From NCBI GenBank assembly GCA_965178125.1, contig OZ237735.1:1860001-1924000 (forward strand): DNA of 64,000 nt, written 5' to 3'. Both the position numbers and the translations under genes were made by a program. Below the pieces are notes generated by a model. That model was not told where the DNA came from. It did not search any database and worked only from the letters and a program-made list of their open reading frames with translations. The DNA comes from Bilabrum cf. latius. Lineage: Eukaryota. Shown here piece by piece: positions 20,801-47,173 of this stretch. Each line of letters begins with the position of its first letter. The first letter of the stretch is position 1.

Positions 20801-21107
20801 CACACACTACCCAACTACAACGACCACCCCAAGAGGCAATCGCACTGCAGGAGAGAGAGAGAGAATATAATATGTCTGAGTCAAAGCACACACTACCCAA
20901 CTACAACGACCACCCCAAGAGGCAATCGCACTGGGCAGGTCGAACGGATCAGCAAGCTCACGCCATGGGCTCCGCAAGCTGGGCCGCTCCTCCGTGGGGG
21001 AGTTGCGCTGCTTGCGGTCCATCTGCGTTCGCGATGCCTTCGTGTTCGATTGCGTTCGGATCAGCCGCCTCGTCCGGTGCTGCACCCTCAGCTCCTACTG
21101 CAGCTGC
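17869..21107 (-). mobile_element. Tandem array of 5'-truncated RLE-type (CRE/R2-like) non-LTR retrotransposon copies, variants A and B
   Basis: Units start (on +) with (C)GGAGAGAGAATA at 18276, 18378, 18463, 20539, 20619, 20770 and 20850 and have different lengths; the last unit resumes at 46878 after the virophage. Confidence 0.85.
18565..20538 (-). CDS. C-terminal part of an RLE-type non-LTR ORF (zinc knuckle + restriction-like endonuclease), 5'-truncated
   Basis: ORFs 19057-20373 and 18565-19005 join through TAG. CPDSEC...GHMSCC, IHEVV, RMDVVI, ILIDVTSVDP and SGRIG fit the CCHC + PD-(D/E)xK RLE pattern. Confidence 0.8.
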
Positions 21108-21208
21108 TGTTATCCGCCAAAATGTGGAGTTATGATAACTCTATTTCTACTATATAGTAGAAATAGAGTTTACTTATATAAAAACTACACACATTTTGGC
21201 GGATAACA
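21108..21208. other. 101-bp terminal hairpin palindrome (mirror copy 46777-46877)
   Basis: TGTTATCCGCCAAAATGTG / CACATTTTGGCGGATAACA arms enclose the perfect palindrome AACTCTATTTCTACTATATAGTAGAAATAGAGTT. Confidence 0.9.
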
Positions 21209-22475
21209 TAAGAGGTCAATATTAACCACTTCACAACATCTTAAGCCGTAGTCCTTCATAATGTCCTTCACTTGAACATAATAATTTAATAGCTATTTAT
21301 TCATATATCTACCTAATTTAATACCTTCGCGCCGTTAATGTCTATCTGTTAGACCTTTACTTTACTTAATCTGTTGAGTGAATCCCTAGCCTAAGTCTTA
21401 GGATATGCCCGCCCGAAATTGCGGAAATATATAGTCATTTAAGAAAATATGTTCGCAATTCTGGGCGCGTAGGTGTATTGAGTTTTATATTATGATTTGG
21501 TTTTAAGTATCAATTGACATTTACCACTTTAGAAAATAACTAAATAAATACTTAAAGAGATTGACAGAAGTATTAAAGTCTTTTTAATACTTCCAATGAA
21601 AAATTTAAATTAATAAATAAAACTAAACTAATATATCAACTTAATTTATCTCTTTTTTTATTACTTGTCAATCTATACTTAAATAATTGAATATTTAAAT
21701 ATAACTAGAAGGAGATATTAATCACTTTATAAAGTCTTTTATATGTCATCTCTTCAAAACTTCAAATATAAGGGTATCCCCTTAAAAATACATTCTTTTA
21801 TCTATCGCCCGAAATTGCGGTAATATTATAGCTATTCAAGATATATTTCTGCAATTCTGGGCGCGTAGGTGTATTGATTTTTATTTTTCATAATTCTTTA
21901 AATATGTTAAAGTCCTTTGTTTGAGTATATGATATAAAGGAATACAAAGCGGGATAACTTAAAAATGATAAATGTTTTGACGATGACTTTAAAATGACTC
22001 AATGAACTGGTTTATGTCAAGTGTATTACTTTGAAATGATTAATCACTAGATTAAATGGAAAATATAGGATAATAAAATATGGTATAGTATAATACTAGC
22101 GCCCGAAATTGCGGTAATATATTAGGATATTAAGATATATTGTCGCAATTCTGGGCGCGTAGGTGTATTGAGTTTTATATTTTGTTAATTTTGACATAGT
22201 TATCTTATAGAGGTGTAATTTTGTAATAAAGATATTTCTAGTATGTGCTATATTAAATGTCCAGAAATGACGGCCCGAAATTGCGGAAATATATTAGGAT
22301 ATTAAGAGATATTGTCGCAATTCTGGGCGCGTAGGTGTCTTCAATAATTAATAATCAACTACTTCTTTATTTTGATTAATTTTTTTGACTTACCGTTCAT
22401 TTTATTGACCACTTAACGGGATATCACAAAAAGACTTAACCACTTGACGAGATATTTTAAAATAACTAATAATAA

Positions 22476-22550
22476 ATATGACCGCCCCAAATTGTATCTC
22501 CAGATATGACCGCCCCAAATTGTATCTCCAGATATGACCGCCCCAAATTG
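22476..22550 (+). repeat. 28-bp tandem repeat (2.7 copies) of the palindrome's left arm within the TIR
   Basis: ATATGACCGCCCCAAATTGTATCTCCAG twice, then ATATGACCGCCCCAAATTG. Confidence 0.9.
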
Positions 22551-22700
22551 CGGAAATATATAAGTATCAAGAAAATTATGTTTGCAATTCTGGGCGCTCA
22601 CCCGTATTCAATTTTACATATTCACTAACTCATACCACTTATTTTAAGTCATTTTCTAGTTTAAAAAACTTAAAGATTTATCTAGTATATTACTATAGTA

Positions 22701-22910
22701 ATGCCAGATATTAAAGATGTATTAAAATAGGTTCAAGACATTATGGAAGATTATCAAAGACTCAAGGAATAGGAGACCAAAAAGAAAGAAGCTATTAAAA
22801 AAGCTAAATAGAAATATTACCAAAAGAATCAAGAGAAATGGAAGGGGTACTATTAGAAGAGAAAACAGGTTAAGGATGAACCAGATACAGAAGGATTAAA
22901 TAAGACTTAA
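22701..22910 (+). CDS. Virophage hypothetical basic protein (69 aa)
   Basis: ATG 22701 to TAA with four in-frame TAG; TATCTA upstream. Confidence 0.6.
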
Positions 22911-22942
22911 AAATATATTCTATTATTATAGTATTATTAATA

Positions 22943-23185: not shown

Positions 23186-25984
23186 ATGACGACCGAACAC
23201 ATATCTAACCCTGTTTATTTCTCAATAGCTCACAACTCTAAACAACCACTTATTAAGTCTTGGTAGAATTTGGAATCTACTAAACTTATCACCAGAAAGT
23301 CAAATCTTAATGTTGGATTACTAACTGGAAGACGTGCAGGTTTCTTTGTCCTTGACTTAGATTGTGAAAAAGAGAAAAATAAAACTGAATTTCAAAATGG
23401 TAAGTTTATTGCGGAATATGGTAGTGTTGATAAGTTTATTCAAGAGATGAATACTTACACTGTCAAGTCTCCCAATGGATATCATTTGTATTTTAAGTAT
23501 GAAGAAGAGTTTAGTAAGAGGTCAGTAAATAGAAAAGAACATATAGATGTGATCACAAATGATAGCTTTATCATGTGTCCTCCTAGCTCTATCAACGGTA
23601 AGAAATACGAACTAATACAAAAGACATCCGTGAAAAGAATACCAACTGACGTCAAGATGTTCATACTACAAAATATCTATTCACCACAACTTACAGCTGA
23701 AGACTACCGTTATATGATTAAACCCGAAGAATACAAACAATACTTATATCAATTAGGTAAAGAGTATTATTCTAATTCATATAACTGGCATCTAGTTTGT
23801 AGAGCTACAAGTTATATCGCTAAATACTTAAATCCAGTAGATGGTAATAAGGTATATGATATATTTGATGAATGGAGCAAACAAGACGTAGAAAGCTATT
23901 AGTCGACTAAGAACAAGATAATTTTTACTCGATTATTACAAAATTCCACTTTTCAATGTGTTGAATGGTTCTTTAATTAGTTAGATAGTGAAAAGAAACG
24001 ACTTAGCCTATATTATCGATACAAGATATTCAAGAATAAAGTAGTCAAGAAAGTCAATTAGAAGATTGACCGTAGATATTTGACTGCTGACGACAAAGGT
24101 CGTTATATTAAATTCTTTAAGAAAGGTATCAACTATGCCGTTAAGTCGGGGGCTGGTTCTGGAAAGACAACTGCTGCTAATGATTTATTTAATAGAGTAG
24201 ATGACAGCTTTTTATCAGTTGTTAGTCGTATTTTATTAGGTAAGCAATAGATGCGTAGTCTTCCAAAATCAACTAAATTCTATCAAGACCATAAATACAA
24301 ATAGGGTGATAGTATTGTTATTACTCCTGAAAGTATTGTTAGTCTTAGCAATTATAACTTTAAGGATTATATTGTCTTTTTAGATGAGTTTAATAGTATC
24401 TTAGAACACTGTTTAAGTTCTACGACTTTATATGGTAGGCGACCAATGAGTTTCATTACTCTTATTCGTGCTCTTACCACTTGTAAGTAGTTCATAGTAG
24501 CAGATGCTGACTTATCTCAAGATGCTCTATATTTCTTAGAATTATTAAAATTAGATTATCAATATATTAGGAATGACAGAAACAGGTTCAAGGGCACCAA
24601 AACTGTATTTGTTAATGACGAACAGACTTTTAGAGATGAGTTAATGAAACACAAGAAATTTATGCTTGCTAGTGATAGTAAGACAAAAGCTGATATAATC
24701 AATGAGTTAATTAGTCTTAAAATTATAGATAACGAGAAAGATAAGAAATTAAATAAAATCTTAATACTTACAGCAGAAAGCGAAGACAAAGACTATGATA
24801 TGGATTTGTTTGATATCATTATCTTCTCACCTAAAGTCATTTACGGGATAGATAGCACTATGACTAGACCAGTCTTTGGTTATTTCAAAGGTCATACTAT
24901 CACACCTCCCCAAATGGTTCAATAGCTTAACAGATGTAGAAACCCATCACATATCACTATATTTTTTGATTACTAGAAAGGACGATCTAGCACATATGAA
25001 AGTCTTTCACAAGTTAAATCTTTTATGGCTACCTCTTTAAAAGACTACGAAGAATTAGTTAAATTTGTCAGTGATACATATCCCGACTTCAACGAGGTAG
25101 AAGTAGAAGACAAAGTAGAAGAAGAAATGAGCAAAGTTAAAATCATATTCAAGAAACTATATCGTAATTATCTTTACAAGGTAGATTGTTATAAGACAAA
25201 CCCTAAATTACATATGATTAAGTAGTTAATTGATACCGGTTATGACGTGTCTTATGATTTATCTGTTAAGATCACCAGATGTAAGGATAAAGAAATCAAA
25301 GATACCATTAAAGAAAAACAACTTGAAAATTTTGATATTAATTGTCTTAATGTCAAGAAGATTAATAAATATTTAGACTTAGATGAAGGTGATATTGACA
25401 AATACAAAGAGTACTTTATTAATAAAGGTAAGTTATCTAATTTATTTAATTTCAATAAATTCTTTAGACAAGATGATAAGCACTTACTTGTGAAAGCAAT
25501 TAATAAAGGCGAGTTTGATATTATCAATGCTAAGTCTAGTTCTAGAAAATTAGTCTTACTTAATAAGATGATTGATACTTTAGGTCTTAAAAGAACTAAT
25601 CTTGATTATAATATCAAAAAGAAAGTATTAGATCAAGACTTAACAGATGAATATAGGACAGTGTATGACTGCCAAAGAAGAAGTAAAGTTGACTTATCCA
25701 CTGATAAAGGTCTTTATTACGAAATACTTAAAGTATATAAATCAATGTTTGGGAAAGACATATTTATGACTTGTAAGAAAAAGAAAATTAACTATGATGT
25801 AGAATTTAATTAGGATATTATTGATGAGATGGAATATATCTGGTCTAACAAGAAAAAGACTCGTGAAGTAGATATATTTGTTGATGATGAAGAGGTTCAA
25901 TTACCCGATGAAGAGATAGAGGTTGACTTAGACCCCGCTTTATTTGTTGATGAGGATAATGATCCACTAGAACAACAAAATTAA
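23186..25984 (+). CDS. Primase-polymerase + PriCT-like + origin-binding (UL9-like) SF2 helicase fusion (932 aa)
   Basis: NVGLLTG...FFVLDLD, KSPNGYHLYF, MCPPS (Prim-Pol); FDEWSK (PriCT-2-like); KSGAGSGKTT, SRILL, FLDEFNS, ADAD, SPKVIYGID, QQLNRCR. Confidence 0.85.
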
Positions 25985-26046: not shown

Positions 26047-26397
26047 TTAGTGGTCTCTTTTTGTCTTTTTAATTTTTTCTTCTCTCTTCTTCCTTTCACA
26101 TTCACTTCTTTCAACACGATACATCAGCTCCTAGACGTGTTTCACTTGCTCTTCATATTCTAACTGTTCCAATGTACTTTCGAGTTTCTTGATAATATTG
26201 TCGAATTTAAAACTAAAGACATTCTAACGATAACCATCACCTTTGTCTTTTGGTTTCATCCATACATATTTATCAAAGTGATTCTCAATACTTTTACCTA
26301 TACTACTGACTACATCATCGACACCTACACCTTTAACAAGACATTCATCTATAAAATTTTGAGATAGTTCAATTTTGATATCTTCTTTATCTGACAT
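26047..26397 (-). CDS. Virophage hypothetical protein (116 aa, MSDKED...)
   Basis: Open with TAG=Gln; preceded by CGCCAAAA...CTATATATATAG. Confidence 0.7.
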
Positions 26398-27122
26398 TAC
26401 TATATATATAGTGGATATTTTTTGGCGAAAGTAATAAACTAGTCTTAAGATATGACCGCCCGAAATTGCGGTAATATTATAGCTATTTAAGATATATTTC
26501 CGCAATTCTGGGCGCGTACGTGTATTGAATTTATTTAGTTATCTTTCAAGTGGTCAAATTGATCTGTATCACCTTTTTTGATACTCTCAATTGAACCAAT
26601 ATTGCTATTGATTACTAGATCTCGTATGCTCATCATTATAATTGGAAATGTTGACAACATAACATCATCATTTGAATAGTCTTTTTTGTTTAAATCTATT
26701 TCTTTCAAGTACTTAATAAGGTCTCTCTCTGTTTTAAATATATCTGTGTCGTCTTCTAATTTTCCATTTTCATTAACCAGTAATAGCTCAAACTCATCCT
26801 TATCTGCTTCTTTTACAAATGAAATAGATACAAACTTATCAATATCCTTTTTGTTATCTACGAATAAGTAATTAAGTTGTTTAAGCTGTTCACCTTGAGT
26901 TATTCGATATCCCTAATAGAATTCAACACCAGTGAAACATATATCATCAACTTGTTTAATTAAATGGAAGTCTAAATTATCTGACATTACTATATATATA
27001 GTGGATATTTTTTGGCGAAAGTAATAAACTAGTCTTAAGATATGACCGCCCGAAATTGCGGTAATATTATAGCTATTTAAGATATATTTCCGCAATTCTG
27101 GGCGCGTAGGTGTATTGAATTT
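26387..27122. repeat. 146-bp direct repeat (26387-26532; 26977-27122): palindrome + promoter + start codon
   Basis: One mismatch seen between copies; each supplies the Met-Ser-Asp start of a different ORF. Confidence 0.9.
26535..26987 (-). CDS. Virophage hypothetical protein (150 aa, MSDNLD...)
   Basis: Open with TAG=Gln to TAA; same upstream module as the neighbouring gene. Confidence 0.7.
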
Positions 27123-27162
27123 TTAAATTTATTTGAATATAATATTTTTTACCTCTTGGTGC

Positions 27163-27475
27163 GTTGTGGTCTTGGTCTAGTGATATCGTGATTGTTTCAC
27201 AAAGTCAAGGTCGTGGGTTCGATTCCCACCACTGACATCGCCGTGAGTCGTTCTGTAAGTCATACTTATGACAAAGCACACGTCTTGCAAGTCTTTGAAG
27301 GGAGTTTGGATACTGTAGAAGTAGTCGTAAGTGGTTGTAGCAGACTTAGTCGTAAGACTTAATAGGGTTTCAGGTGCATCAGTTCACGTTCTGGCTCCGC
27401 TACAACAATGACTTACGAATGACTTCGCCAAGTAGTCAAACCATCGGTATAATTACTAGCTCAAAGAATTTTTTT
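27163..27475 (+). ncRNA. Putative Pol III ncRNA: degenerate tRNA-like head + long structured body + T7 terminator
   Basis: A-box-like TGGTCTAGTG, T-arm GTGGG-TTCGATT-CCCAC; helices 27246-27263/27408-27424 and 27334-27341/27399-27406; GTAA tetraloop 27348-27359; TTTTTTT 27469-27475. Confidence 0.55.
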
Positions 27476-27480
27476 AATAA

Positions 27481-27903
27481 TTAATCCATATTAGGGGGTT
27501 TCTTATACAAGATAGCAGGGTCGCATCCATTTGTTGGAAAGTCTGCTGGATACCACCCCCATACTACTTTATAAATATCTGTGCTGGTGTCGTGTTCAAC
27601 TTTATGATAAAAAATACAATCATAATGAATACCATTCTAATTACGCACCTCTTGCTCCATCTCTTCAATTATCTATCCTACCTTTAACTTTGTAAAGCCT
27701 CCTTCACTTACATATGTCTTTATATGACCTCTATTATTTACCTATATCTAATCTTTATCTATTACAATGTCTTCAGGATCTCCTTCAAGTTCATCATCTA
27801 AGTAAACCTTTTGAGATTTAAGTGTTGGGTCTTCTCTATGTGGTAAGAATAAGAATGAATACTCCATATAAAGTAAGTCTTCACACGGTGATACTGCTGC
27901 CAT
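27481..27903 (-). CDS. Virophage hypothetical protein (140 aa)
   Basis: Absent from the ORF track; open with TAG=Gln; CGCCAAAA/TATATATAG motif upstream. Confidence 0.7.
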
Positions 27904-28090: not shown

Positions 28091-29977
28091 TCACATATTG
28101 AGCTACTTTCTAAGTTTCATAAGTTGAGCCTTAGTTAATTTCTTACCTCCACTGGTCAAAAGACTTCCACCACTAGTTAAAAGACCTGCTCCAACACGTT
28201 CAGCTAAGTCATTCACTTCATCGGGTAAGTATTCACTTACTGCTTGCCTTGCTTTACGAAGAGCTGGTTTCACTTTATCAAATTTAGCTTTAGCTTTCTT
28301 TCCAAAGTCTACCACTTTACGTCCTAAGTCTTTAGCTTTGTTAAAGGCTCTCTTAAAGAATTGCATCACTTTACGACGTCTTCCACCTAATACGTTCTTA
28401 GAGTAGTTCATATTAGAAAATGTATAATTAGAAGGTTTAGCCACTTTCTCAGGGTCAACAGAAGCACTATCTTCACGCCATTCAATAGCGGCACCTCTAG
28501 TATTCACGATAATCTTGTCATAGGCACAGAATAATTGAGCTTTATATCCTTGAGACATAGCAGCGGTTGGGGGTTCGTCATAGGCTACTTGAACACGAAT
28601 ACTAATAGGGTCAGCACTGTTGCTTTGAATAGTTTCAGGAGTATTTAAATCACTAAGTCTAAATAAGAGCCAGCCATTAGATCCGTATACTTTAGAAGCA
28701 CCTCCTACAGTTACATCTAAGTTAGTAAAAGAAGCATACTCACTATTTGATCCATTTCTTTCACTAAGTCTAAAGATATCGTCTTGTGTAAGTTCTCCTA
28801 AAATAGAACCCTAAGACCTAAGTTGTACTTTAATATTGTTAATGGCAAGTGTTCTATGAGGTGTACCACTAGCTTCTCCATATTGAGAATCAACTAAGCA
28901 CACAGCAAACCAAGAAGGGCAAGTCTAAAGTTGATAATTATTAAAAGTATGGACACCTTTAGTAGTGATAGGATTATCAAGTTTAGGCTCTTCATGTAGT
29001 TCAAAGTCAACAGAGTTGTAGAATATTTGTTTAGGTACTTTCTTCAAGAAGTTAAGATGAGTATTATAAGTAAAGACATCAAAATGGATCTAGCAATCGG
29101 ATAAAGCAAAAGCATAGTCTCCATTCCAATCACTTGAAGTATTAAACATCTTATCAATTAAGTTATTTCTCATTTGTAAATTAACATTTAATTGTGGATG
29201 ATCAACAAAAGGTCTAGCATTACCACCCATCATATATTGGAAAGGACGTGCAAGAAGTGCTTCAGAGATTTCAATATGTAATTTGACATAGTCTTGAGTT
29301 GGTGTTACATTATTATTAGGTATTGGAGTATTAGCATCCACTTTTTCAAGTGTTGCGCGGTAATTCTTACCAGGACCGCGAGCTTCCATAATACTATCAT
29401 CATTTACACCCCATTGAAGGACAGACTTAGCAAGACCATTTGCGGCAGTATTAAATTCCCAAGTGTTATCAGCCTAAAAGACAGGACTTATTTGTGCTAG
29501 AGTGGCACGGTCAAGACTTCTAGCTATTAAATTGACTAATTGATAAGGTGATGAACTACGAGATAAGTCTCCCATTTTAACTGTGGAACTTGTGATCATT
29601 GAATTTACCATAAATGTAGAAGGGGCTACCTTATTGACGATATCAGTTTGAGCTACTGCTCCATTGTTCTAACTATCATAGATGTATACGTCAAATGAAA
29701 CTCTTAGACGGGGATTACTGTCAGTCATTCCTTGATTTGATGGCACGACAAAAGTGTAATTACTTCTAAATGCATTAGTTGCGCTAGAGTTACCACCATC
29801 TGGTTCATAGTGGTTTTGGAACTTGGAAGAGTATCCAAGGGTAGTTCCTAGAGTAATAGCTTGACTATCACCCACAAAGTTGAGTTTTTCGTCAGCTATT
29901 TGAGTTACTGGTAGTTCTGAGACGTCATCTACGACTTTGCTTTGTGCTGCTACAGGTACATTATCCATATCAGACAT
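28091..29977 (-). CDS. Virophage major capsid protein (628 aa)
   Basis: Three track ORFs in one frame joined by TAG. Size and segments (YTFVVPS...DS..LR, ISEALLARPF, LQTCPSWFAVC, IFRLSEKNGS, C-terminal GG tail) resemble virophage double-jelly-roll MCPs; adjacent to penton. Confidence 0.85.
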
Positions 29978-30019
29978 TATAAATATATTAAGACTAAAGA
30001 TATTTATTTATTTTTTACT

Positions 30020-30946
30020 TTAAGTTATTAACTTTTTACTTTTAAATAGAGCTTTTATATTAAGTCCTTGTCCAAAAGTAAAGGGTATTTCGTATAAGTT
30101 TCCAAAAGTATCTCTAAAATACGGTACTATACTATAACTATTAAATGCTGATCTATAGAACTATTGCCATCTATGATTTCCTCCACTACTAAAGTTTATT
30201 TTAATAAAACTCGTTCCTGTTGTATTGTCTATCTTGAAATCACTTAAGATATTTTCACTTTGTATCTCTGTACTAGATGTACTTTTATATGATGGCGTAA
30301 ATTCTGGAAGTATTGGAAGTGATGGACTAATAATTTGAATATACTCCATAGTAGGAAACTAATCTAAGGTAGAAGCACTCTATTCATTATATCCATCTAA
30401 TAGATTTATATAAGTATCACTCTTGATGTCTTTACCTTCATCGTCATATTCAAATGTCTCAAATATAGAGAATAAAGGAAAGTTAAAACTTAAAGTCCAC
30501 GCACTTGTAAAAGCCGCTAAACGGGTGAAACTAAAAGTTTTAGTCTTACCGTGATATTCAAATACTATACTATCAGTTGGAATACTAGCATCTCCACATA
30601 AATCACTAAGAGTATTATTAAATTCATTAGATAGGGTCTTAAGACTATAATATAACGACTTGGTTAAGACAATATTACGAGTGTAAGTAGTTCCATCACT
30701 CTTCTTCACAAACGACATCTTATAAATTGACTAATTATCGCTATTCTTTACTTCTTTACTTGCTACAAATAAAGGAATACGACATTTAAGAGTCCATCGG
30801 TCAAGTGATAATAAGTAGTTTTGTGAATTTGTCAAGATATTACCTTGACGCTGTTCATGTATTGATACTGGTCTATTAGTATTAATAGATGTTATAGTAT
30901 CCTATGAGTTAATATAAAAGATATCTGGTTCTTGAATCTCTACCAT
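30020..30946 (-). CDS. Minor capsid (penton) protein (308 aa)
   Basis: EQRQGNILTNSQNYLLSLDRW, ILSDF and RDTFGNLYEI...IKALFK resemble virophage pentons; lies directly upstream of MCP. Confidence 0.8.
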
Positions 30947-31306
30947 TCTATAACATTTATCAAGAAAATAAGTCTTGTCTAATGCCCCAAATTGCGGTAA
31001 TATTATAGCTATTTAAGATATATTTCCGCAATTCTGGGCGCGTACCCGTATTGACTTTTTGAAAAAGTTTTTATTAATTATTTGACTCATTGAAAAAATC
31101 CAATATTCCGAAATTTTAAAAATTTAGTATCTTAAGATATAGTATAATACCAGCGCCCCAAATTGCGATAATATATTAGGATATTAAGATATATTTCCGC
31201 AATTCTGGGCGCGTACCCGTATTCATTTTTATATTTTAGTCTTTTTAATATGGCCACCTTATAGATATCAATTTTCAATATCTAAAAATTTATGGTATAT
31301 GTCATA

Positions 31307-31855: not shown

Positions 31856-31874
31856 ATACTTAATACTAAGAAAA

Positions 31875-34622: not shown

Positions 34623-34656
34623 ATATTAATAAGAAATATTATAGTTCTTTATTATA

Positions 34657-35100: not shown

Positions 35101-35139
35101 ATTTAATAATATTATCTATTATCATAATATAATTATACG

Positions 35140-36582: not shown

Positions 36583-36825
36583 ATGGTATATACTATAATA
36601 TTTTAATTTAAAAATATTACATTGTAAGAGGTGGCTATATTAAAAATGACTAAATTATAAAAATCAATACGCCTACGCGCCCAGAATTGCGGAAATATAT
36701 CTTAATATCCTAATATATTATCGCAATTTGGGGCGCTAGTATTATACTATATCTTATACTACTAACTTTTTAAAATCTCGTAATTTAAAAAAAAAATATC
36801 TAGTCTAGCTAATATAATATAAGTA

Positions 36826-37548: not shown

Positions 37549-37591
37549 TTGAGTTTAATTATAGAAATATCTTTTTTATTAATATAATAAA

Positions 37592-38230
37592 ATGGATGGA
37601 ATCAGTTCAAGCAGTGTCGTTGTAGGAGGTTTAAGTGTCTTACTACCTCTAGCATACTCTGGTGGTATGTCTTGTTGGTAGTGGTTATGGGATAAACCTT
37701 TACATAAACGTAAAAAAATATGTATCTGTGTGCCTGAAGGTAGTGGTAAGTCTACCGCTTGTCAAATATTACGGTCTAGTTCTAAAGACTGTTTACTTGT
37801 TGATTTAGATAGTACTCTAGGAGTATATGTCTAGGAGCCCGAATTACTTATGAAACTAGACGAATGTAAGTTAAAAAGTGATTGGGGTAATTATAATATA
37901 CTTAATAGAAAAGCCAGTAAAGAAGCCCTTCAATGGGTAAAAGATAACTGGTTGAATGAAGGTAGCGAGAAGAGAGTAATATTCTTTACTAAAGAGTTAA
38001 GTCTAGCTAATGAGTTATTTAAAAAAGAAAGTATAGTTGTATGTCTTCCATCTAATTCACTATTCTAGAAGACTTTAAAGAATTAGAAAGTAGATAAATA
38101 GAAGTCTATGTTAGAAGACCGTAACTCTTATATCAAAGAGTTGAACCCTTCTAGCTATTACATTTATAATACTTACGAATAGCTTCACGATAAATTGAGG
38201 AATTGCCTCTAGTTAGGGTACCAAATATAA
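37592..38230 (+). CDS. P-loop NTPase/kinase-like protein with N-terminal hydrophobic segment (212 aa)
   Basis: VVVGGLSVLLPLAY; ICVPEGSGKST; LVDLD. Confidence 0.65.
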
Positions 38231-38386
38231 TACAAATAAATACAAAATAATACAAAAGTCAATACGCCTACGCGCCCAGAATTGCACAAATATATCTTGA
38301 ATAGCTATAATATTTCCGCAATTTCGGGCGGTTAGATCCTAAGTTTAATTATTCCGCCAAAAAATATTTACTATATATATATAGAA

Positions 38387-38701
38387 ATGAACTTTAATAA
38401 TATTTATAACATAAAAAGTTTGAACAATATATTAAAAAAGGTAAAGACAGCTTTTGATCAATTTTTTGATGGAAAGGACCTTCGTATTTGTGAAGTTGAA
38501 GAGCTAAAAGAAGTAGAAAAAGACTAGATTATTACCTACGAAGATATTAAGTCTATCCTAGGTCTTAAAATGGCTATGTTGCCTAAATATGAAGGAATGT
38601 TTTAGATGGCGCAAGATTACAAAGATTTTCGTATTATTAATGGCTTACTTGATTTAGAAATTATGAATGAGTTAAAACGTGTGGAAAAATCAACACGGTG
38701 A
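38387..38701 (+). CDS. Virophage hypothetical protein (104 aa)
   Basis: CGCCAAAA...CTATATATATATAG upstream; bracketed by two palindromes. Confidence 0.65.
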
Positions 38702-38813
38702 GACGCCCAGAATTGCGAAAATATATCTTGAATAGCTATAATATATCCGCAATTTGGGGCGGTCGTATCTAACCTGTCAATTTGTATTTTTATAATTAAA
38801 ATACATACTGATA

Positions 38814-39320
38814 TTACAATTTATAATCTAGACAAATATTGTCTGGTTGTTTAGAAGTATTACATAATAGACTTAACTTTTGATCTATTTCTTTTTCTAC
38901 TCCTGTTTTAGTCTTTTCGTCTTCTTGTTCCATCTCTTGGACAGTCTCGTTGAATTTATCCACATCACCGTAAGTCTTTATAAATACTTGTTTTTTCTCG
39001 GACATCTTGATTTTGCTATCCTCCACATATTGCTCTCCTTCAATATTACATAATATATTATTAAGATGGAGATAACTTTCTGCTTTGTCATCGTGATCTG
39101 TGCTTAATACTTCAACATACTTTGTTTTAAATCTAAGTTCCAAGTTATGACGTATTTCACTCATATGTTTATGGATCTCTTTTGGGTCTTCTATTTCGCT
39201 CTCTTCATACATTGCTATTATAGTACTTATGACATCACTAGGGTTTTCGTCTCGTATTTTAAGTATTAAACTAAAGACATCAAAGTATTCATTTAAAAAC
39301 TTCCAAATTGTGTTTTTCAT
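38814..39320 (-). CDS. Virophage hypothetical protein (168 aa)
   Basis: Clean ORF ending TAA; CTATATATATAG upstream. Confidence 0.7.
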   Translation of the reverse strand: MKNTIWKFLNEYFDVFSLILKIRDENPSDVISTIIAMYEESEIEDPKEIHKHMSEIRHNLELRFKTKYVEVLSTDHDDKAESYLHLNNILCNIEGEQYVEDSKIKMSEKKQVFIKTYGDVDKFNETVQEMEQEDEKTKTGVEKEIDQKLSLLCNTSKQPDNICLDYKL

Positions 39321-39339
39321 TTACCTATATATATAGTGG

Positions 39340-40020
39340 TCATTTTAATAAGATATTTTTAAACTTTGTAAAGTTATCATGAATTTTATCACTATCACCC
39401 CAGCACACTTTAGCATACCATAAGTTGCTGTCATACATATCGGTCTCATCAAAATGAATATGTCCTAATACTCGCTTTCTCATTTTATCAGCGTGTGATT
39501 TACCTCTTCTTAAAGCATCAGGATAAGTCTATGTATTCTTTTTGTTAAAATATACCTTTGTATCATTAATCTCTACACAATAAACATATTCAGGTTTATC
39601 ACTCACTGTAAGATCACTAATATTGATTTTTGGTTTTGGTTTCTCTTTAATTGGTTTCTCTTCAATGACTTCACTCACTACTTCACTACTTGTATCACTA
39701 TATGTATCATTCAAATAGTCTTCCTCTTTATTATCCTCTATGTCTTCGCTATCTAATTCAACATCTTCCAATATAGCCTATTGTCGTTCTAATTGTGGAG
39801 GTTTTAACTAGATAGGTTCTATTTTAGACGGTTGTCTCACTAAATTTATAGTTGCTATCTCGTCCCCTTCATCATCTATTTCACCCTATAAACTTGAATA
39901 ATGCTTGTTAATCCATAACATTTTTAAGTCATCACGAGACCACTTGTACTTTTCACTTAACTTGACTACTCTTTTTAGAAGGTCTTTATTTTTGTATCTT
40001 GTTATATTTAACAATTCCAT
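39340..40020 (-). CDS. Virophage hypothetical protein (226 aa), acidic middle
   Basis: Open with TAG=Gln; C-terminus KVCWGDSDKIHD resembles KILWGSDNAIKD of 44738-45145. Confidence 0.7.
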
Positions 40021-40122
40021 ATACTTATTATAAATAATTTCTTTGACTTTGTTTTATATTAATATGGTAAATACTAGAAAAAATTAATATTTCAAAAGTC
40101 GTATCTATACACTGGCTAACAT

Positions 40123-41902
40123 TGATGCCAGAGTGTACGCGCAACCTAGTCTCGTTAACAATCAGACATGGCAAGACCTGACAAAGCTGTGCCTGTGCGC
40201 GACCCTTGACCGGACTGACCGGGGCTGGGAAGAGCACGTGCACTACTCCGCCGAGGAGGAGGGGGTTGGGAGGGTGGGCAAAAATTACCCAATCTCCGCC
40301 CCTCTCCTGAACACAGAGAGGGTATGCGCGTCATCGCAAGCAATCCGTTGGCTTGGTCGCACCTTCCCGGTCGCAACCGCCATCGGAACCCAACGAGACG
40401 TTCACGCGCTCCCACTCTGGCATCAACACCGAACCCCATCCGGCGTTAGGATCATGATGCCAGAGTGTACGCGCAACCTAGTCTCGTTAACAATCAGACA
40501 TGGCAAGACCTGACAAAGCTGTGCCTGTGCGCGACCCTTGACCGGACTGACCGGGGCTGGGAAGAGCACGTGCACTACTCCGCCAAATCTTACCGCCATG
40601 TCTTGTACGCTGCGGCTGTGTGGCTCACTCCAAGTTCAGCCGCAGCGCGCTGGCCAGCACCCACACTGGCCTGTTCAAATCGAGGCTCCTGCCGCCGAGC
40701 TCCAGAGGAGGCAAGCCTTCCCTGACGCCCCGCAAGTACACCTCGCATGCAGATGCCGACTTCCATCTGCCAAATCGCCTAATGACCTCGAAGGCGACCC
40801 CAGCACGGTCCAAACACATCACTGCCGCGATGCGGATGGAATGTCCGTGCACCGCTCCTGCAACTTCTCGTGAGCAGAAGCTGCGGAGCGCCCGTACTAC
40901 CTGCGCCTTGACGATCGGCTTCGTGTTCGCCACGAAGACTGGCCCTGACGTGGGGCAGCTGAGCGCCAGCTACCGGGCGTAGTCTTCGTCTGCGCCTGCA
41001 GTTGGGGCGTGGCTCGCTGCTGCCCACGCCACGAAGGCTCGCACGCCGCAGAACCTGCTGCCTGTGACTGCCCATCGTCCGGCTCTGCAATGGACTGCGA
41101 TGGGCTCTGCGGCTGGGATGGAGAACTTGGCTGGGCCGTCGGCTTTGTGGAGGCCCAGGCGGATGGCAACACCATGGATGCGTCCGTCTCGCGTGATGAA
41201 CTGCACTTGCTGCCATTGGAGGCCGGCTTGTCGTCTGGACGCACCGACGAGCTCTCCCAGCCGGAGGCCCCCACAGAAGCAGAGACAGACAGCTGTCCGA
41301 GCAGCCTACTCTGTTGTGCTGCAACCGGCTGTCGAGAAACACCGTCGGATTGCGCGGAGTGGGGCTGAAGATCGACGCAACGGGTGCGCCGATGGCGATG
41401 CTTTGTGGTAGTACCGGAGGATGCTGTCGAGCTAGCGTGACCGTGGGACGCCGCACGCTCCTGTGGACTCGATGACGACTCGCTAGGCATTTCTGGTGTA
41501 TGTAGCGATGGTGCCGCCACTGAGAGGCGAACATTCCCCTAAGAAGACTGCGAATCTCGAGAGCGCTGCATTGAGCCTGAACGCGAAGAGTCTGCGAGCT
41601 GCTGGAAGATGCCCGTCCATGAAACTGCGGTCGATGTCGTACCACGTGAGGAAGTTGTCGAAGTGCCCCCACGCCGTGCGCAACCCACTGAGTCCAGAGT
41701 GGCCACCAGCGTGAAATGGTAAAACCCAAAAATTACCCAATCTCCGCCCCTCTCCTGAACACAGAGAGGGTATGCGCGTCATCGCAAGCAATCCGTTGGC
41801 TTGGTCGCACCTTCCCGGTCGCAACCGCCATCGGAACCCAACGAGACGTTCACGCGCTCCCACTCTGGCATCAACACCGAACCCCATCCGGCGTTAGGAT
41901 CA
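40123..41902 (-). mobile_element. Non-autonomous Ngaro-type tyrosine-recombinase retrotransposon
   Basis: GC-rich insert with split direct repeats A1-ORF-B1-A2-B2 on the minus strand: A 176 bp (41727-41902, 40279-40454), B 130 bp (40455-40584, 40123-40252); no TSD. Confidence 0.9.
40625..41720 (-). CDS. Tyrosine recombinase (DIRS/Ngaro type), start uncertain or truncated
   Basis: Three track ORFs in one frame; GLRLGEL, HSIR, GRWKS, VYLR catalytic residues. Confidence 0.85.
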
Positions 41903-42030
41903 AAAATGATAAAATTATAAAAATCAATACACCTACGCGCCCAGAATTGCGGAAATATATCTTAATATCCTAATATATTATCGCAATTTGGGGCGCTGGT
42001 ATTATGCCATAAAGTATATTACTAGATTAA

Positions 42031-43686
42031 TTATCTCTATCTATCAGAATAGTCTTTCGCAAGTGGTCGTATTTGGTCTTTCCCATAATCCTATTCTAAT
42101 TTCTTACGGGTAATCCATTCATTAAACTTATTAGAATATCCCTTATATTTGACTAAGTATTCAATAAGTCTATCTTTATTTTGTCTTTTATCTAAAAACT
42201 TCTCTATTGTGTCTGGTTCTACTTCTAAACCTTCAACATTATCAATTTCAGGCTCTTCACTTTCCTTGTCTATGTCATCATTTACCTTATCTTCGTGTTC
42301 TACATTGTCTATTTTCTATAACTGTGAAGCATTAAAGAATCCAGTAAGAGGTTCTCCCTCTTTGTCCATTACTTTATATTTAATCCTCTACTTAGGATTT
42401 CTTGGTTTGGTCTTCTATCTAACAGTGAAGACTTCTCTAGACCAATTAAATAAATTTCCTTTAAACTTGTTCTTCTCAAGTAATACTCTAACTCTATCCC
42501 CTACATTAAGATCTTTATCATTCCCGTCAAAATTATTTGATAATTTCTTATTTTCAATTCTAGATCTAACTACTTCTAAATTTTCGGGTTTCATTGCTTC
42601 TAGTGGAGACATTCCTATAGTGTTGTGTTTTCTCTTATTATATGCTCTTACTAGTCTCTATAATGACGTATGCCAAACACCATCACTGTCATTCTTAATA
42701 GCAAAGTCTTTTCTAATCTATTCTTTTATAGTCCTATTAAGTCTTTCAACTGCACCATTAGACTATGGATTTCCTGCGATGGTGAATAGTGGTTTTATGT
42801 CATTGTCATTCATAAATTTAATATATGCCTCTTTATTAAACTCATTATCACTTAACATAACAGTCGGTTTTCTCCAATTAGGTTTCTTAAATAGTTTCTT
42901 CATCTCACGAATTATATTAACTAATGTCTTATCTTTTAATGAAATACTCCATAGGTATTTTGTGAATATATCCATTATATTTAATATCCAATTATAGCCG
43001 TCATTAGTGTCTGAATACTTTTGCATGTCTATTAAGTCCAAGGCGTAAATTGAGAAAGGCTTAGTAGGTACAAAAGAACTTACTGCTGACTGTTTAGGTC
43101 GTTTTTTGGTCAATTGGTGGAGCATCTAGTTATTTAACCACTTTTCTACTTGTCGTCTTTTAATACGTTTATCTTTTTGTCTAGCTAGGTCATATAACGC
43201 ATCACGACTGACTACATTACCTTCTTCATAATATAGTTTCTTTAATATTGGTTTATAATTAAATTTGTCTTTGTCGTCCTCATCTTCTACTTCAATTAAT
43301 TTACCGGTTGGTTTATTAAGTTTTTTCGTCTAAGCTTTAGTCATCTTATAAAAAAGACGAACTAGGTTAGACTATTGAACGCTAAAATGAACACGACTCA
43401 CTAAGTTATATAAAGTGAAATAGTCTCCATCCTTCTATATTGAGTTAATTACCCCACCTCTTCTAAATAGTGGCTTTCCCTTGATATTACTTACATAAGA
43501 TACATAAGAATATAAAGGTATTTTTTTAATACTTGCTTTGGTAGTTGGTACCTCTTCAAATCCTTTATCAAGTAGTCCCTTAATAGTGGCTTCTAAATTA
43601 TCACTATCTTTTTGATTTTTTGTCGGTTCATCACCATACGTGTAAGATATTTTACCTCTAGTGTATGTCTTGCCTTTATTAGTCAT
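42031..43686 (-). CDS. Retroviral-type (rve) integrase with C-terminal chromodomain (551 aa)
   Basis: ALDLID, MDIFTKY, SDNEF, P[TAG=Q]SNGAVERLNRTIK, YN..H..IGMSP, VGDRVR; chromo EYLVKYKGY...NEWI. Confidence 0.95.
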
Positions 43687-43772
43687 ATTTACTATATATA
43701 TAGTAGATATAAATTTTGGCGTTAATTAAACGATTTTTTAACATATTGTCTTCTGTTATTTCTTCTAGTTGT

Positions 43773-44006
43773 TTATGCTGTAATTGTTCCATTTTTCTTT
43801 AATATTTCTTCTCGTTCTTCTTTACTTTGAAGATTATAAAAAAGAGTCTATGATCCATTTGACATATCCCACTCATTGCCATCAAAACATAATTTAATTT
43901 CATCTTTTAAATTGTCCTCTATAGCTTTTATAGCCTTTTCAATAACTTTATTATTTTTACAAGCTTTTAAAAACTTGGGAGACATTATAATTTTCAAGTC
44001 GTACAT
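43773..44006 (-). CDS. Virophage small hypothetical protein (77 aa)
   Basis: ATG preceded by CGCCAACA...TATATA; open with one TAG. Confidence 0.45.
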
Positions 44007-44046
44007 ATATATAAAGACGATATAATATGTTGGCGTAAATTAAACA

Positions 44047-44580
44047 TTATTTCTTATATTTCTTTCTCTTCTAGTTACAGTCATAACAAAACCAGAAAGT
44101 GGCTCCTGGTTTAATAAGATACTTTTCACATTTCTTACATTGTGAGTATTTCCTCTTTTTATTATAACAACTAAGACAAGTCTTTTTATATTTATGTTTT
44201 TCAATGAACTCATCGCAATCAGTGCATCTACTCTTATCTTTTAATATGTCTTTATTTAATTCGTGTTTAATGGATTTAATATGACTTTTCCAGCTACTAC
44301 GTTTAACAACACAAGAGCATACATCACAAGTCTTATACATACAAGCCTTATACACATCATGATCCTTTTCGAATGTGTTATTAATACATTCAGAACCTAA
44401 TTTAAATATATCACCAGTTGGGGGATACTCAACGAAATGAACTTCCTTAATTTGGTGATCACAGATACACTTTCCGTCTTCTTCTCTAGTCTCTCCAGCT
44501 GGTATTAATAGAGGGGCTATCTTATTCCAGTCATTAATCTTTAGCTTATTGATTATGAAGTTACGACATTTATAGCACAT
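44047..44580 (-). CDS. Cys-rich multi-zinc-finger protein (177 aa)
   Basis: CICDH...GSECI, CxxC...H..S..H and several further CxxC. Confidence 0.75.
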
Positions 44581-44737
44581 TATAATATAGTATATACTAT
44601 AATAATATATTATTTTTAAGTCTAATTAAACGAGATGTCTTAAGCTCGATTCAAATTTGGGCGCCCGAAATTGCGGTAATATTATAGCTATTCAAGATAT
44701 ATTTTCGCAATTCTGGGCGTTTAGGCGTATTGACTTT

Positions 44738-45145
44738 TTAATTTAATATTTTTAATTGTTTCAGTCTTGCGTCCACTTTAGACCTATAGTCATCTAACCA
44801 TTTTTCCAAAGTATCCCCTTTAACATACCTTTTTACATCTAATACTCCATTGGCTAGTTTTGTTAAGTAGTCCTTTATAGCATTATCACTTCCCCATAAG
44901 ATTTTATGACTGTGATATTTTGAGCTATTAGTATCGGTAGTCTTCCCGTGTCTTCGGTAGTATAGGCGTCGTCTTTTAGGGTCAATATGGTTATTATCTC
45001 CATACTTACCAATCAAATCAAAGTATTGAGCATATCGTGCATCACCAAAGCTAGTGATATACTTACCATTTTTGAATACATCATATTTCTTATTTCTACG
45101 AGTAGAGGGTTTATATTTGAATCCATCAATAATTATCTCATACAT
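44738..45145 (-). CDS. Small basic protein of a type seen in giant viruses/virophages (135 aa)
   Basis: STRRNKKY...SFG...Y...RR..Y..RH...ILW pattern; family not confirmed. Confidence 0.7.
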   Translation of the reverse strand: MYEIIIDGFKYKPSTRRNKKYDVFKNGKYITSFGDARYAQYFDLIGKYGDNNHIDPKRRRLYYRRHGKTTDTNSSKYHSHKILWGSDNAIKDYLTKLANGVLDVKRYVKGDTLEKWLDDYRSKVDARLKQLKILN

Positions 45146-45344
45146 AATATATTATGATACAAGATTTATTAACTTAGTATATTGTCGGTAAGACTTGTAA
45201 ATTAGTTATTAAATAGGTGAAGACTACCAAGACATATCATAAGACAAAATCATTTGTTAAGGACTAGTTAGAAGAAGTACTCAATACATTGATACAAGTT
45301 AAAGGACATTCTAAATATGAACACAAGATCAAATGGACCACTTC

Positions 45345-46877
45345 AAGTGGTATGAGTTAGTGAATATGTAAAATTGAATACGGGTGAGCGCCCAGAATTG
45401 CAAACATAATTTTCTTGATACTTATATATTTCCGCAATTTGGGGCGGTCATATCTGGAGATACAATTTGGGGCGGTCATATCTGGAGATACAATTTGGGG
45501 CGGTCATATTTATTATTAGTTATTTTAAAATATCTCGTCAAGTGGTTAAGTCTTTTTGTGATATCCCGTTAAGTGGTCAATAAAATGAACGGTAAGTCAA
45601 AAAAATTAATCAAAATAAAGAAGTAGTTGATTATTAATTATTGAAGACACCTACGCGCCCAGAATTGCGACAATATCTCTTAATATCCTAATATATTTCC
45701 GCAATTTCGGGCCGTCATTTCTGGACATTTAATATAGCACATACTAGAAATATCTTTATTACAAAATTACACCTCTATAAGATAACTATGTCAAAATTAA
45801 CAAAATATAAAACTCAATACACCTACGCGCCCAGAATTGCGACAATATATCTTAATATCCTAATATATTACCGCAATTTCGGGCGCTAGTATTATACTAT
45901 ACCATATTTTATTATCCTATATTTTCCATTTAATCTAGTGATTAATCATTTCAAAGTAATACACTTGACATAAACCAGTTCATTGAGTCATTTTAAAGTC
46001 ATCGTCAAAACATTTATCATTTTTAAGTTATCCCGCTTTGTATTCCTTTATATCATATACTCAAACAAAGGACTTTAACATATTTAAAGAATTATGAAAA
46101 ATAAAAATCAATACACCTACGCGCCCAGAATTGCAGAAATATATCTTGAATAGCTATAATATTACCGCAATTTCGGGCGATAGATAAAAGAATGTATTTT
46201 TAAGGGGATACCCTTATATTTGAAGTTTTGAAGAGATGACATATAAAAGACTTTATAAAGTGATTAATATCTCCTTCTAGTTATATTTAAATATTCAATT
46301 ATTTAAGTATAGATTGACAAGTAATAAAAAAAGAGATAAATTAAGTTGATATATTAGTTTAGTTTTATTTATTAATTTAAATTTTTCATTGGAAGTATTA
46401 AAAAGACTTTAATACTTCTGTCAATCTCTTTAAGTATTTATTTAGTTATTTTCTAAAGTGGTAAATGTCAATTGATACTTAAAACCAAATCATAATATAA
46501 AACTCAATACACCTACGCGCCCAGAATTGCGAACATATTTTCTTAAATGACTATATATTTCCGCAATTTCGGGCGGGCATATCCTAAGACTTAGGCTAGG
46601 GATTCACTCAACAGATTAAGTAAAGTAAAGGTCTAACAGATAGACATTAACGGCGCGAAGGTATTAAATTAGGTAGATATATGAATAAATAGCTATTAAA
46701 TTATTATGTTCAAGTGAAGGACATTATGAAGGACTACGGCTTAAGATGTTGTGAAGTGGTTAATATTGACCTCTTATGTTATCCGCCAAAATGTGTGTAG
46801 TTTTTATATAAGTAAACTCTATTTCTACTATATAGTAGAAATAGAGTTATCATAACTCCACATTTTGGCGGATAACA
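45345..46877 (-). repeat. Right terminal inverted repeat (1,533 bp)
   Basis: Reverse complement of 21108-22640. Confidence 0.95.
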
Positions 46878-47173
46878 GCTGCAGCAGGTACTGCGGGCAC
46901 GGCTGGCGCTCCAGCTGCATCCAAACCCTACGCACCACCAGCTCCACCAATAGAGAGAATATAATAGAGAGAGAGAGAAAAATAGAGTTTTCGCACGCAA
47001 TTCAATACCAGAGACAATCCGAGGACTGCCACCAAAGTAACGCGCACCTTAACAGGGGACCCAGCTGTACCCGCGTTGGCGGAGCCAGTCAGGACCTGAA
47101 AAGGCCTCTAAAGAAGTAGTTGGTCTGGATAAGACCGATACATGCCTAGGACCCGTGTCCTAAGCGCATCGCG
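46878..47173 (-). mobile_element. Rest of the interrupted RLE unit plus further truncated 3' ends (46952; 46967-47173)
   Basis: 46878-46948 continues the 18061-18130-like sequence; 46967-47173 nearly duplicates 8836-9039. Confidence 0.8.

Follow-up and report, generated by a model that had tools for sequence, protein, structure and literature searches.

The 64,000-nucleotide stretch of DNA analysed here (hereafter the window; Bilabrum cf. latius, assembly GCA_965178125.1, contig OZ237735.1, positions 1,860,001 to 1,924,000) contains an integrated, recently inserted virophage genome whose genes are open under the host's own code, in which TAG is best read as glutamine. Virophages are small viruses parasitic on giant viruses. 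The element is a real and recent provirophage, and what sets it apart is this recoding. In its full form, the reading developed below is that of a provirophage of the class Maveriviricetes, with a mavirus-like lifestyle module, inserted recently in a TAG=Gln host and, by analogy with known systems, presumably reactivated by a giant virus; the probability of this whole reading is estimated at about 0.85. An earlier note on the same DNA had already proposed a complete, recoded endogenous virophage with intact ends, and its claims are taken up where the results bear on them.

Boundaries and insertion of the element

The GC content is 0.29-0.36 within the element and 0.56-0.64 on both sides of it. 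In a repeat search, the dominant inverted pair (21098-22640 and 45345-46887; 1543 nt, 100% complementary) consists of two terminal inverted repeats (TIRs) of 1,533 bp plus 10 bp of flanking sequence, which are self-complementary by coincidence. The first bases of the element are TG at 21108 and the last are CA at 46877. The boundaries are the following (runs, organisms and proteins of public collections are designated throughout by codes: X1-X8, A-C, P0001 and so on):

21103-21107, left target-site duplication GCTGC, read directly and the same as 46878-46882
21108-46877, integrated virophage genome of 25,770 bp with TG...CA ends and ~30% GC, delimited by the repeat search, the ends and the GC content, its terminus being seen also in run X2
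21108-22640, plus strand, left TIR of 1,533 bp with six copies of an 18-nt motif
21108-21208, terminal foldback of 101 bp, mirrored at 46777-46877, from repeat search and DNA folding
45345-46877, minus strand, right TIR, 100% identical to the left TIR
46878-46882, right target-site duplication GCTGC, read directly

The GCTGC duplication, the TG...CA termini and the matching 1,533-bp TIRs had all been reported in the earlier note and are recovered here, whereas its interval of 21103-46882 includes both copies of the duplication and has to be narrowed to the element proper. The target-site duplication and the identity of the TIRs indicate that the insertion is recent, and in this respect the claim of an integrated and recent element stands. 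No long open reading frame (ORF) crosses the empty site reconstructed in silico, the longest one having 253 codons from stop to stop, and therefore no disruption of a host gene is claimed. The left TIR itself contains no ORF of at least 80 amino acids.

The ends of the element are also structured. The 19-nt terminal sequence is repeated in inverted orientation 63 bp inward, so that the 19-mer is present in four exact copies (0.02 expected), and the 101-bp foldback has a DNA folding energy of -33 kcal/mol (z = -13.4). A search of IMG/VR with the terminal 19-mer gave 0 matches. In run X7 (organism C), from which the virophage is absent, a contig match begins at 46780, within the terminal foldback, with GC-rich sequence before it; this contig is possibly a solo derivative of the virophage terminus, or one resembling a miniature inverted-repeat transposable element.

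Reassignment of TAG in the element and its host

The ORFs considered are non-overlapping, lie outside a nested insert described below and were called with TAG as sense; there are 27 of at least 57 amino acids, 24 of them with at least 69. The earlier note had listed about 23 ORFs, uninterrupted once TAG is sense; the open frames are confirmed and the count is raised. The genes on which the argument rests are:

23186-25984, plus strand, primase-polymerase and helicase replication protein (primase-helicase), 932 amino acids, 11 TAG (Pfam, PHROGs, homologues)
28091-29977, minus strand, major capsid protein (MCP), 628 amino acids, 6 TAG (Pfam, phmmer, fold search)
30020-30946, minus strand, penton (minor capsid) protein, 308 amino acids, 5 TAG (phmmer)
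31307-31855, minus strand, putative cysteine (maturation) protease, 182 amino acids, 3 TAG (sub-threshold Pfam match, position)
31875-32942, minus strand, putative FtsK/HerA-type packaging ATPase, 355 amino acids, 6 TAG (sub-threshold Pfam match, Walker A, position)
42031-43686, minus strand, rve integrase with C-terminal chromodomain, 551 amino acids, 12 TAG (Pfam, PHROGs)

With the standard code the longest virophage ORF has no more than 204 amino acids; an ORF of 241 amino acids is antisense to the integrase, and another of 251 lies within the GC-rich insert. When TAG is taken as sense, ORFs of up to 932, 628, 551, 480, 355 and 308 amino acids are obtained, and the longest stop-to-stop frame of the element rises from 317 to 942 codons, as compared with 381 when TAA is the codon made sense and 484 when it is TGA. 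The 27 ORFs (6,160 codons) contain 93 in-frame TAG, distributed over 25 of them, and neither TAA nor TGA in frame, while the off-frame counts in the same DNA are 368 TAG, 704 TAA and 462 TGA. The terminal stops are TAA in 21 cases and TGA in six. That every large gene is broken under the standard code might also describe a decayed relic, in which the TAGs would be true premature stops. To this alternative we attach practically no credence: the frames are interrupted 93 times by TAG and never by TAA or TGA, even though off frame TAA outnumbers the other two stop triplets; TAG falls on conserved glutamine columns; and the core genes are without frameshifts between TIRs that are identical.

The meaning of TAG was read from homologues with at most 33% identity; 25 were used with the primase-helicase, 35 with the MCP and 11 with the integrase. 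These three genes hold 29 TAG codons, six of them in columns too gappy for use, and over the 23 scored columns the summed log-odds were +9.5 bits for glutamine, +0.2 for lysine and -22.8 for asparagine, with all other residues lower. The same method decoded all six control codons (CAA, AAA, GAA, TTA, TAT and AAT) correctly. In the primase-helicase, glutamine is found at the TAG columns of positions 355, 580 and 435 in 22/25, 23/25 and 11/25 homologues, respectively, and in the integrase at positions 187 and 457 in 6/10 and 7/11. It is concluded from these alignments that glutamine is the best reading of TAG in the element, as the earlier note had supposed, the pattern being that of NCBI table 15. 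The glutamine codons of the element are CAA (150), TAG (93, i.e., 37%) and CAG (9). With so large a share for TAG and CAG nearly gone, the virophage appears to be adapted to the code and not merely tolerant of it; such codon usage would point to an old association and leads to the prediction of a TAG-compatible giant virus.

The host flanks behave in the same way. With TAG as sense, the longest ORF of the left flank grows from 1,016 to 2,643 codons and that of the right flank from 724 to 4,004. Four flank ORFs (3-7730, 9712-17643 and 48475-60489 on the plus strand, and 60674-63997 on the minus strand), each of 1,108-4,004 codons and 10,329 in total, contain 65 in-frame TAG, 0 TAA and 0 TGA, whereas off-frame frequencies predict ~38 TAA and ~205 TGA if these were unconstrained. 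The two complete ones stop at TAA or TGA; the other two leave the window or reach its edge. Host and element ORFs together thus hold 158 in-frame TAG and no TAA or TGA in 16,489 codons. Two of the flank ORFs are paralogues (2,563 aligned codons, 92% identity), in which TAG is conserved at 12 sites and replaced at 12 others, by CAG in six, by AAG in two and by AGG, CGG, GAG or TTG in one each. The best explanation is that host and virophage share a rare nuclear code with TAG as glutamine and TAA and TGA as stops; the extension of sense TAG to the host, also proposed earlier, is borne out by these ORFs and by the TAG-CAG exchanges. Reassignment of UAG only is rare in nuclei (PMC5304391).

Several observations speak against this decoding or add nothing to it. 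A tRNA scan of the 64-kb window found 0 genes, so that the decoding machinery, which in such a host would include a suppressor tRNA-Gln(CUA) and an altered eRF1, is unseen. The summed score of lysine is not negative, and at position 680 of the primase-helicase the TAG column is isoleucine or leucine in 24/25 homologues, which we cannot explain otherwise than by local misalignment. Moreover, a public protein collection holds two entries (P0061 and P0089, on a 48.6-kb contig) that are 100% identical to the TAG=Q translations of the primase-helicase and the integrase, and proteins of related lineages, 76-87% identical, are found on short contigs of other assemblies. As the collection already includes exact TAG=Q translations, close relatives are not independent evidence on the code; those examined (P0001, P0062/63 and P0090/91) were dropped as a test, and their three glutamine matches out of six are not counted. 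The same two entries qualify the earlier statement that standard gene callers would miss such an element, which is only partly true.

A meaning of TAG other than plain glutamine, be it another residue, with lysine as runner-up, or a context-dependent alternation of sense and stop, is accordingly quite improbable. Besides the lysine score and the isoleucine/leucine column, it could appeal to the lysine-rich composition of several TAG columns and to nature itself, where UAG=Leu and further UAG meanings are known (PMC5304391; PMC11687900). It does not account for two near-invariant glutamine columns and three more with a glutamine majority, nor for the fact that TAG-CAG is the commonest change between the host paralogues (6/12), nor for the CAG count of nine against 93 TAG.

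Capsid genes and class of the element

The capsid proteins place the element among the virophages. The MCP matches the C-terminal domain of Sputnik V20 (PF22031, MCP_V20_C) with 30.4 bits for a cut-off of 27 and, as a single sequence in phmmer, the mavirus MCP (6g45) at 1.2e-15, the Sputnik MCP not being matched in that way at E up to 1. Among 1.84 billion representatives, HMMER recovered 60 MCP relatives at E up to 1e-3, the nearest of which, beyond the element's own 86% relative, are 30-32% identical. A family profile of 45 sequences (the query and 44 of the 60 relatives) gave three matches only in the PDB at E up to 0.01, to the mavirus MCP (1.7e-158 for 6g45, and 1.3e-130) and to Sputnik V20 (3j26_A, 2.3e-52). 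The AlphaFold (AF2) model (mean predicted local distance difference test, 76.5; predicted template modelling score, 0.74) has the double jelly-roll as a beta-rich core that extends to about residue 520, and behind it a tail, basic and disordered, at the C-terminus. When this model was searched with Foldseek against BFVD, the first four ranks were taken by Qinghai Lake virophage (2e-32), an unnamed entry, Sissi virophage and mavirus (1.8e-26), the identity to the mavirus MCP being ~20% in the structural alignment. The penton protein in turn matches its counterparts in mavirus (penton, 6g41, 4.8e-13) and Sputnik (minor virion protein, 3j26_N, 4.7e-5). PHROGs gave no match for the capsid genes, and a tblastn of the MCP against a phage collection gave none either.

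By sequence, then, the MCP and penton assign the element to Maveriviricetes; with an MCP only ~20% identical to that of mavirus, membership of the mavirus family is doubtful. The earlier note had considered that an MCP grouping with the capsids of Polintons or Polinton-like viruses would change the class, and the capsid sides instead with the virophages, in keeping with its preferred reading. A Polinton, a Maverick or a Polinton-like virus is an extremely improbable identity. An rve integrase, TIRs and a 5-bp duplication are common to Polintons, and an 'Adintovirus' capsid appears at rank 5 of the fold search (3.4e-24), ahead of capsids of nucleocytoplasmic large DNA viruses and others at 1e-13 or weaker; however, virophage MCPs hold the ranks above it, MCP and penton match mavirus and Sputnik by sequence, and five 'adintoviruses' are virophages by the MCP criterion (PMC9952930). 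The lack of a protein-primed DNA polymerase of the PolB type, in the 20 ORFs scanned against Pfam, is a further argument in the same direction.

The other genes of the lifestyle module are supported to different degrees. The integrase has an rve domain of 32.8 bits (cut-off 32.6), a Chromo domain of 30.3 bits (cut-off 25.1) and matches to transposase phrogs down to 3.3e-11. The primase-helicase matches Prim-Pol of Pfam at 8.9e-14 and phrog_4913 ('replication') at 7.4e-25 across residues 297-714; besides the identical P0061 it has 27 further relatives, several of them with helicase families of Pfam. ATPase, protease, penton and MCP follow one another in this order, all on the minus strand. The putative ATPase has a Walker A motif in its translation and is located in this morphogenesis block, and the putative protease shows a His...Cys pair by eye and lies between ATPase and penton, as in mavirus; it has no relative in the PDB. 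Thus, of the morphogenesis module and rve-chromodomain integrase described previously, MCP and integrase are above the Pfam cut-offs and the penton is matched by phmmer, while ATPase and protease are below the cut-offs.

On the side of doubt, as regards virophage identity, are these two sub-threshold assignments (AAA_10 with 25.2 bits for a cut-off of 27.5, and AAA_22 with 25.9 bits, for the ATPase; Peptidase_C57 with 16.3 bits for a cut-off of 24.5, for the protease), as well as the lack of a PolB gene just mentioned, in which the element differs from mavirus. Searches of environmental data with the MCP were also negative: IMG/VR gave no match, an alignment of seven MCP sequences produced 18 pattern matches there with 0 confirmed, and in the JGI metagenomes 34 pattern matches were obtained, again with 0 confirmed.

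A nested host element

A 1,780-bp insertion of high GC content, missed in the earlier note, is nested in the virophage:

40123-41902, minus strand, Ngaro-like element of 1,780 bp and 60% GC (GC content, repeats, insert-free contigs)
40625-41887, minus strand, putative tyrosine-recombinase ORF of 420 amino acids with 4 TAG (Pfam, homologues)

Its limits are given by public contigs (runs X1 and X2) that join 40122 to 41903. It contains two pairs of direct repeats, each 100% identical (40123-40252 and 40455-40584, 130 nt; 40279-40454 and 41727-41902, 176 nt), which, read along the ORF strand, form the split arrangement A1-[ORF]-B1-A2-B2. The ORF matches Phage_integrase (PF00589) with 21.2 bits, under the cut-off of 27.1, and the same family is found in two of its three homologues (P0104 and P0105). 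The insert is located between the stop of the integrase gene (42031) and the start of the ORF 39340-40020 and cuts no ORF. The copy is nevertheless not pristine, and the earlier description of the virophage as complete with intact ends has to be corrected to that extent. The insert sits exactly at the edge (41903) of a repeated intergenic cassette.

Run X7 (organism C) contains the insert, with high depth, and no virophage, which identifies the insert as a host element. It resembles Ngaro elements (order DIRS) in the A1-[ORF]-B1A2B2 repeats (cf. PMC8547959), the putative tyrosine recombinase, the lack of a target-site duplication and the insertion into a virophage. Unlike them, it has no reverse transcriptase, RNase H or Gag, its 1,780 bp holding only the recombinase ORF and two small ORFs. 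Without a reverse transcriptase it would be a miniature, presumably non-autonomous derivative, that is, at best a Ngaro-like element in non-autonomous or deleted form.

Polymorphism in public read sets

Seven of the eight listed runs, from three studies, contain the stretch or part of it, six of them with at least half of its words. Runs X1 (organism A) and X2 (organism B), which belong to two studies, cover all 30 bins of 29000-48999, with listed pieces that differ by 0-14 letters, and the virophage is therefore present at >=99% identity in the read sets of two organisms. An insert-free join of 40122 to 41903 is found in both, at a depth of 16.3 in X1 and 934.8 in X2, where neighbouring virophage contigs have ~14-20 and 900-1,300, respectively; the insert-free form is thus the main assembled form in these runs. 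Two contigs of X2 run through the right TIR up to precisely 46877 and from there into a different flank; this confirms the terminus and reveals at least one other insertion site. The search for other copies that the earlier note had recommended thus finds a second flank at the same terminal base. The element is polymorphic both for the nested host element and for its location, which is at more than one site. Identical TIRs, open and recognisable genes, other flanks and an insert-free main form together indicate that the insertion is recent and the lineage still mobile.

Some features of these data weigh against the reading or restrict it. The four runs compared as contigs were compared over 29000-48999, with the left junction outside that range; X1 and X2 each differ from the window in some letters; and among the contig matches listed none bridges the right junction of the window or either junction of the insert. 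In X1 and X2 the element has several-fold the depth of the outer bins of the flank, a contig-based value that is not a copy number, and coverage gaps and depths in general were taken neither as absence nor as copy number. An assembly artefact, in which a free or contaminant virophage was misjoined to host DNA, could draw on this word depth and on the tendency of short-read assemblies to break at 1.5-kb repeats. It is nevertheless very improbable, as the window includes both junctions, where the copies of the 5-bp duplication match and the TG...CA ends are exact, a rare code is common to host and element, a GC-rich element of host type that carries TAG is nested within, and the second flank of X2 at the same terminal base is what integration predicts.

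Two side observations were made in these runs. In X8 (same organism label as X1, other sample), contigs at a depth of 460-520 have matches to the element of only 26-33 nt (32452-32484, 36589-36622 and 44040-44065), with the same loose ends in X1, which suggests that this organism has a further element or virus, related and abundant. In X1 and X2, contigs join 31054 or 31060 to 33612 or 33613, one of them in X2 at a depth of 1,203 with a short side of 27-28 letters. Both join sites (31054-31123 and 33612-33613) carry the repeated intergenic cassette, and the join may be a variant without the protease-ATPase segment or an effect of the repeat.

Upstream motifs

Short motifs were counted in the 60 nt before the 24 ORFs of at least 69 amino acids. 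TATCT precedes 11 of them, in eight cases 20-29 nt before the ATG, and AAATATC precedes eight (0.5 expected). TCTA, the late-promoter motif of mavirus and of Cafeteria roenbergensis virus (CroV) (PMC8547959), precedes eight as well; TATCT is related to, and not identical with, that mavirus/CroV motif. The 18-nt GC-rich motif is present, with up to three mismatches, in 22 copies, all within the element (0.09 expected); six are in each TIR and the others in intergenic cassettes, oriented to the downstream genes. Its single exact match in IMG/VR (L001 626-643, an 8-kb contig) is taken as chance. This motif and the terminal foldback offer handles for the study of regulation and integration. The intergenic cassettes themselves, of 100-140 nt, occur in both orientations with 80-92% identity (31105-31246, 36643-36784, 41903-42028, 22071-22192 and 27040-27145) and could mediate inversions within the element.

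Proposed life cycle

By its ends and genes, the element may have followed a mavirus-like cycle. The rve integrase would have inserted the virophage genome into the nuclear DNA of a GC-rich microbial eukaryote by a 5-bp staggered cut, leaving TG...CA ends, with the chromodomain possibly guiding integration to chromatin; later, the Ngaro-like tyrosine-recombinase element of the host would have landed between two genes of this copy. By analogy with mavirus and the endogenous mavirus-like elements (EMALEs), the genes would remain silent until a giant virus infects the cell; the motifs read by its transcription machinery would be the short AT-rich ones upstream and perhaps the GC-rich one of 18 nt. 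Replication would depend on the primase-helicase; the MCP and penton would form the capsid, which the ATPase would fill and the protease mature. Production of virophage could then lower the yield of the giant virus, as mavirus does in Cafeteria. In a cytoplasm where TAG is glutamine, any helper giant virus must itself be translatable. Reactivation is the part of the reading that leans on analogy, and this is a point against it.

The copy may alternatively be intact in appearance and a dead end, either no longer reactivated or spreading only as a transposon by means of its integrase, without virions. Such an outcome is unlikely, with the following in its favour: no RNA run is among the listed runs that contain the stretch; a retroelement is nested in this copy; and a 101-bp foldback with its own 19-bp inverted ends suits pure transposition. 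On the other hand, the four morphogenesis genes have remained open despite 20 in-frame TAG, which is argued to reflect purifying selection on capsid formation, and identical TIRs, other insertion flanks and an insert-free form assembled at the depth of the element do not suit a dead end.

Comparison with known systems

Virophages of the Sputnik type have the same capsid protein families as the element (V20 at 2.3e-52 by profile; penton at 4.7e-5) and a primase-helicase rather than a replication gene of the PolB type, as is the case here. They differ in the integration module, which in this element consists of rve and chromodomain.

The closest parallels in organisation are found in mavirus and the EMALEs of Cafeteria burkhardae (PMC8547959; see also PMC10945749). 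Both systems have a low-GC virophage in a high-GC host, TIRs, an rve integrase, the order ATPase-protease-penton-MCP, insertion sites that differ between strains, nested GC-rich retroelements of the Ngaro type with a tyrosine recombinase (putative in the present case), and shared short upstream motifs before most genes (PMC8547959). The target-site duplication of EMALEs is 3-6 bp (PMC8547959), which the 5 bp of this element fit. The element differs from EMALEs and mavirus in the distance of its MCP from that of mavirus and in having no protein-primed polymerase; the mid-GC EMALEs also lack this polymerase and have a primase-helicase instead (PMC8547959), whereas this element is low-GC. The Ngaro elements of EMALEs are of ~6 kb with Gag, reverse transcriptase and RNase H (PMC8547959), and the insert described here is of 1.78 kb with the recombinase only. 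The chief difference is that here host and element read TAG as glutamine.

Another example of integrated small DNA viruses that use the non-standard code of their host is that of the endogenous elements of Streblomastix strix, in which code sharing has been taken as a sign of long association (PMC10120064). These elements belong to a 'Metamonada' MCP group seeded by a Trichomonas MCP and are not virophages, and their code has both TAA and TAG as glutamine (table 6), in contrast to TAG alone here (PMC10120064). As to the code itself, Iotanema spirale (UAG=Gln) and the rhizarian exLh (UAG=Leu) have, as here, UAG as sense and UAA and UGA as stops (PMC5304391). A metagenomic virophage with an ochre-suppressor tRNA has been taken as a hint of host reassignment (PMC6905037), and according to a catalogue of 2026 the annotation of some giant-virus genomes improves with alternative codes, virophages not being mentioned in the excerpt (PMC13524828). 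In the literature covered, supplementary tables lying outside that coverage, no virophage with a reassigned stop codon was found, and neither were papers on flagellates with UAG=Gln.

Significance

Among the candidates for heritable antiviral defence in protists, endogenous virophages have the best support, and the functional data come from one host, Cafeteria. The present element repeats the layered organisation of that system in a host whose code is rare, i.e., a virophage in the host and a putative tyrosine-recombinase retroelement in the virophage, and so offers an independent second system in which virophage-mediated defence could be tested. It is also a natural experiment on the part that codon reassignment may play in limiting or channelling the host range of viruses. 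Virophage surveys in which genes are called with standard codes, or in-frame stops are put down to decay or faulty assembly, will judge such elements wrongly.

Only tentatively, and with less than even confidence, we propose beyond this a protist-giant virus-virophage system operating under TAG=Gln, in which the lineage would have co-evolved with the code and the integrated copies would serve as a heritable defence against giant viruses. If so, the virophage could replicate only where host and helper giant virus both tolerate a sense TAG; for viruses in general the code change would act as a host-range barrier, which this lineage has crossed; and the integrated copies would themselves be parasitised by a miniature Ngaro-like element.

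Other features of the element and its flanks

The remaining annotated features of the virophage are:

26047-27903, minus strand, three small ORFs (116, 150 and 140 amino acids) with a conserved upstream cassette before each, compared over its last 80 nt
33804-38701, block of six ORFs without family
33804-34622, minus strand, first ORF of the block
34657-35100, plus strand, Lys-rich ORF
35140-36582, plus strand, ORF of 480 amino acids
36826-37548, plus strand, ORF
37592-38230, plus strand, ORF with a weak P-loop match
38387-38701, plus strand, last ORF of the block
44738-45145, minus strand, ORF of 135 amino acids with a DUF5754-like N-terminus (PF19058, 26.7 bits, cut-off 27.4) and no TAG

In addition, an ORF of 177 amino acids on the minus strand (44047-44580) is Cys-rich, with many CxxC pairs and no Pfam family, and may be a zinc-binding regulator.

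The genes of the flanks look eukaryotic and include those of a reverse transcriptase, a B_lectin protein and a coiled-coil protein. The ORF 9712-17643 (plus strand; 2,643 amino acids, 17 in-frame TAG) has an RVT_1 match at 7.4e-16 and is probably a large host retroelement; a short N-terminal peptide of it is repeated just to the left of the virophage (ORF 20786-21181). A 7.7-kb direct duplication (1-7730 and 52790-60489; 89-98% DNA identity), which contains the paralogous giant ORFs, has one copy on each side of the virophage. The complete copy (48475-60489) codes for 4,004 amino acids with a B_lectin domain and, by eye, a motif like that of OTU proteases. Finally, 26 overlapping register-copies of a 300-nt reference, with start spacings of 12, 72 or 84 nt, are found at 61733-63556, inside the gene of the coiled-coil, tail-anchored protein (60674-63997, minus strand).

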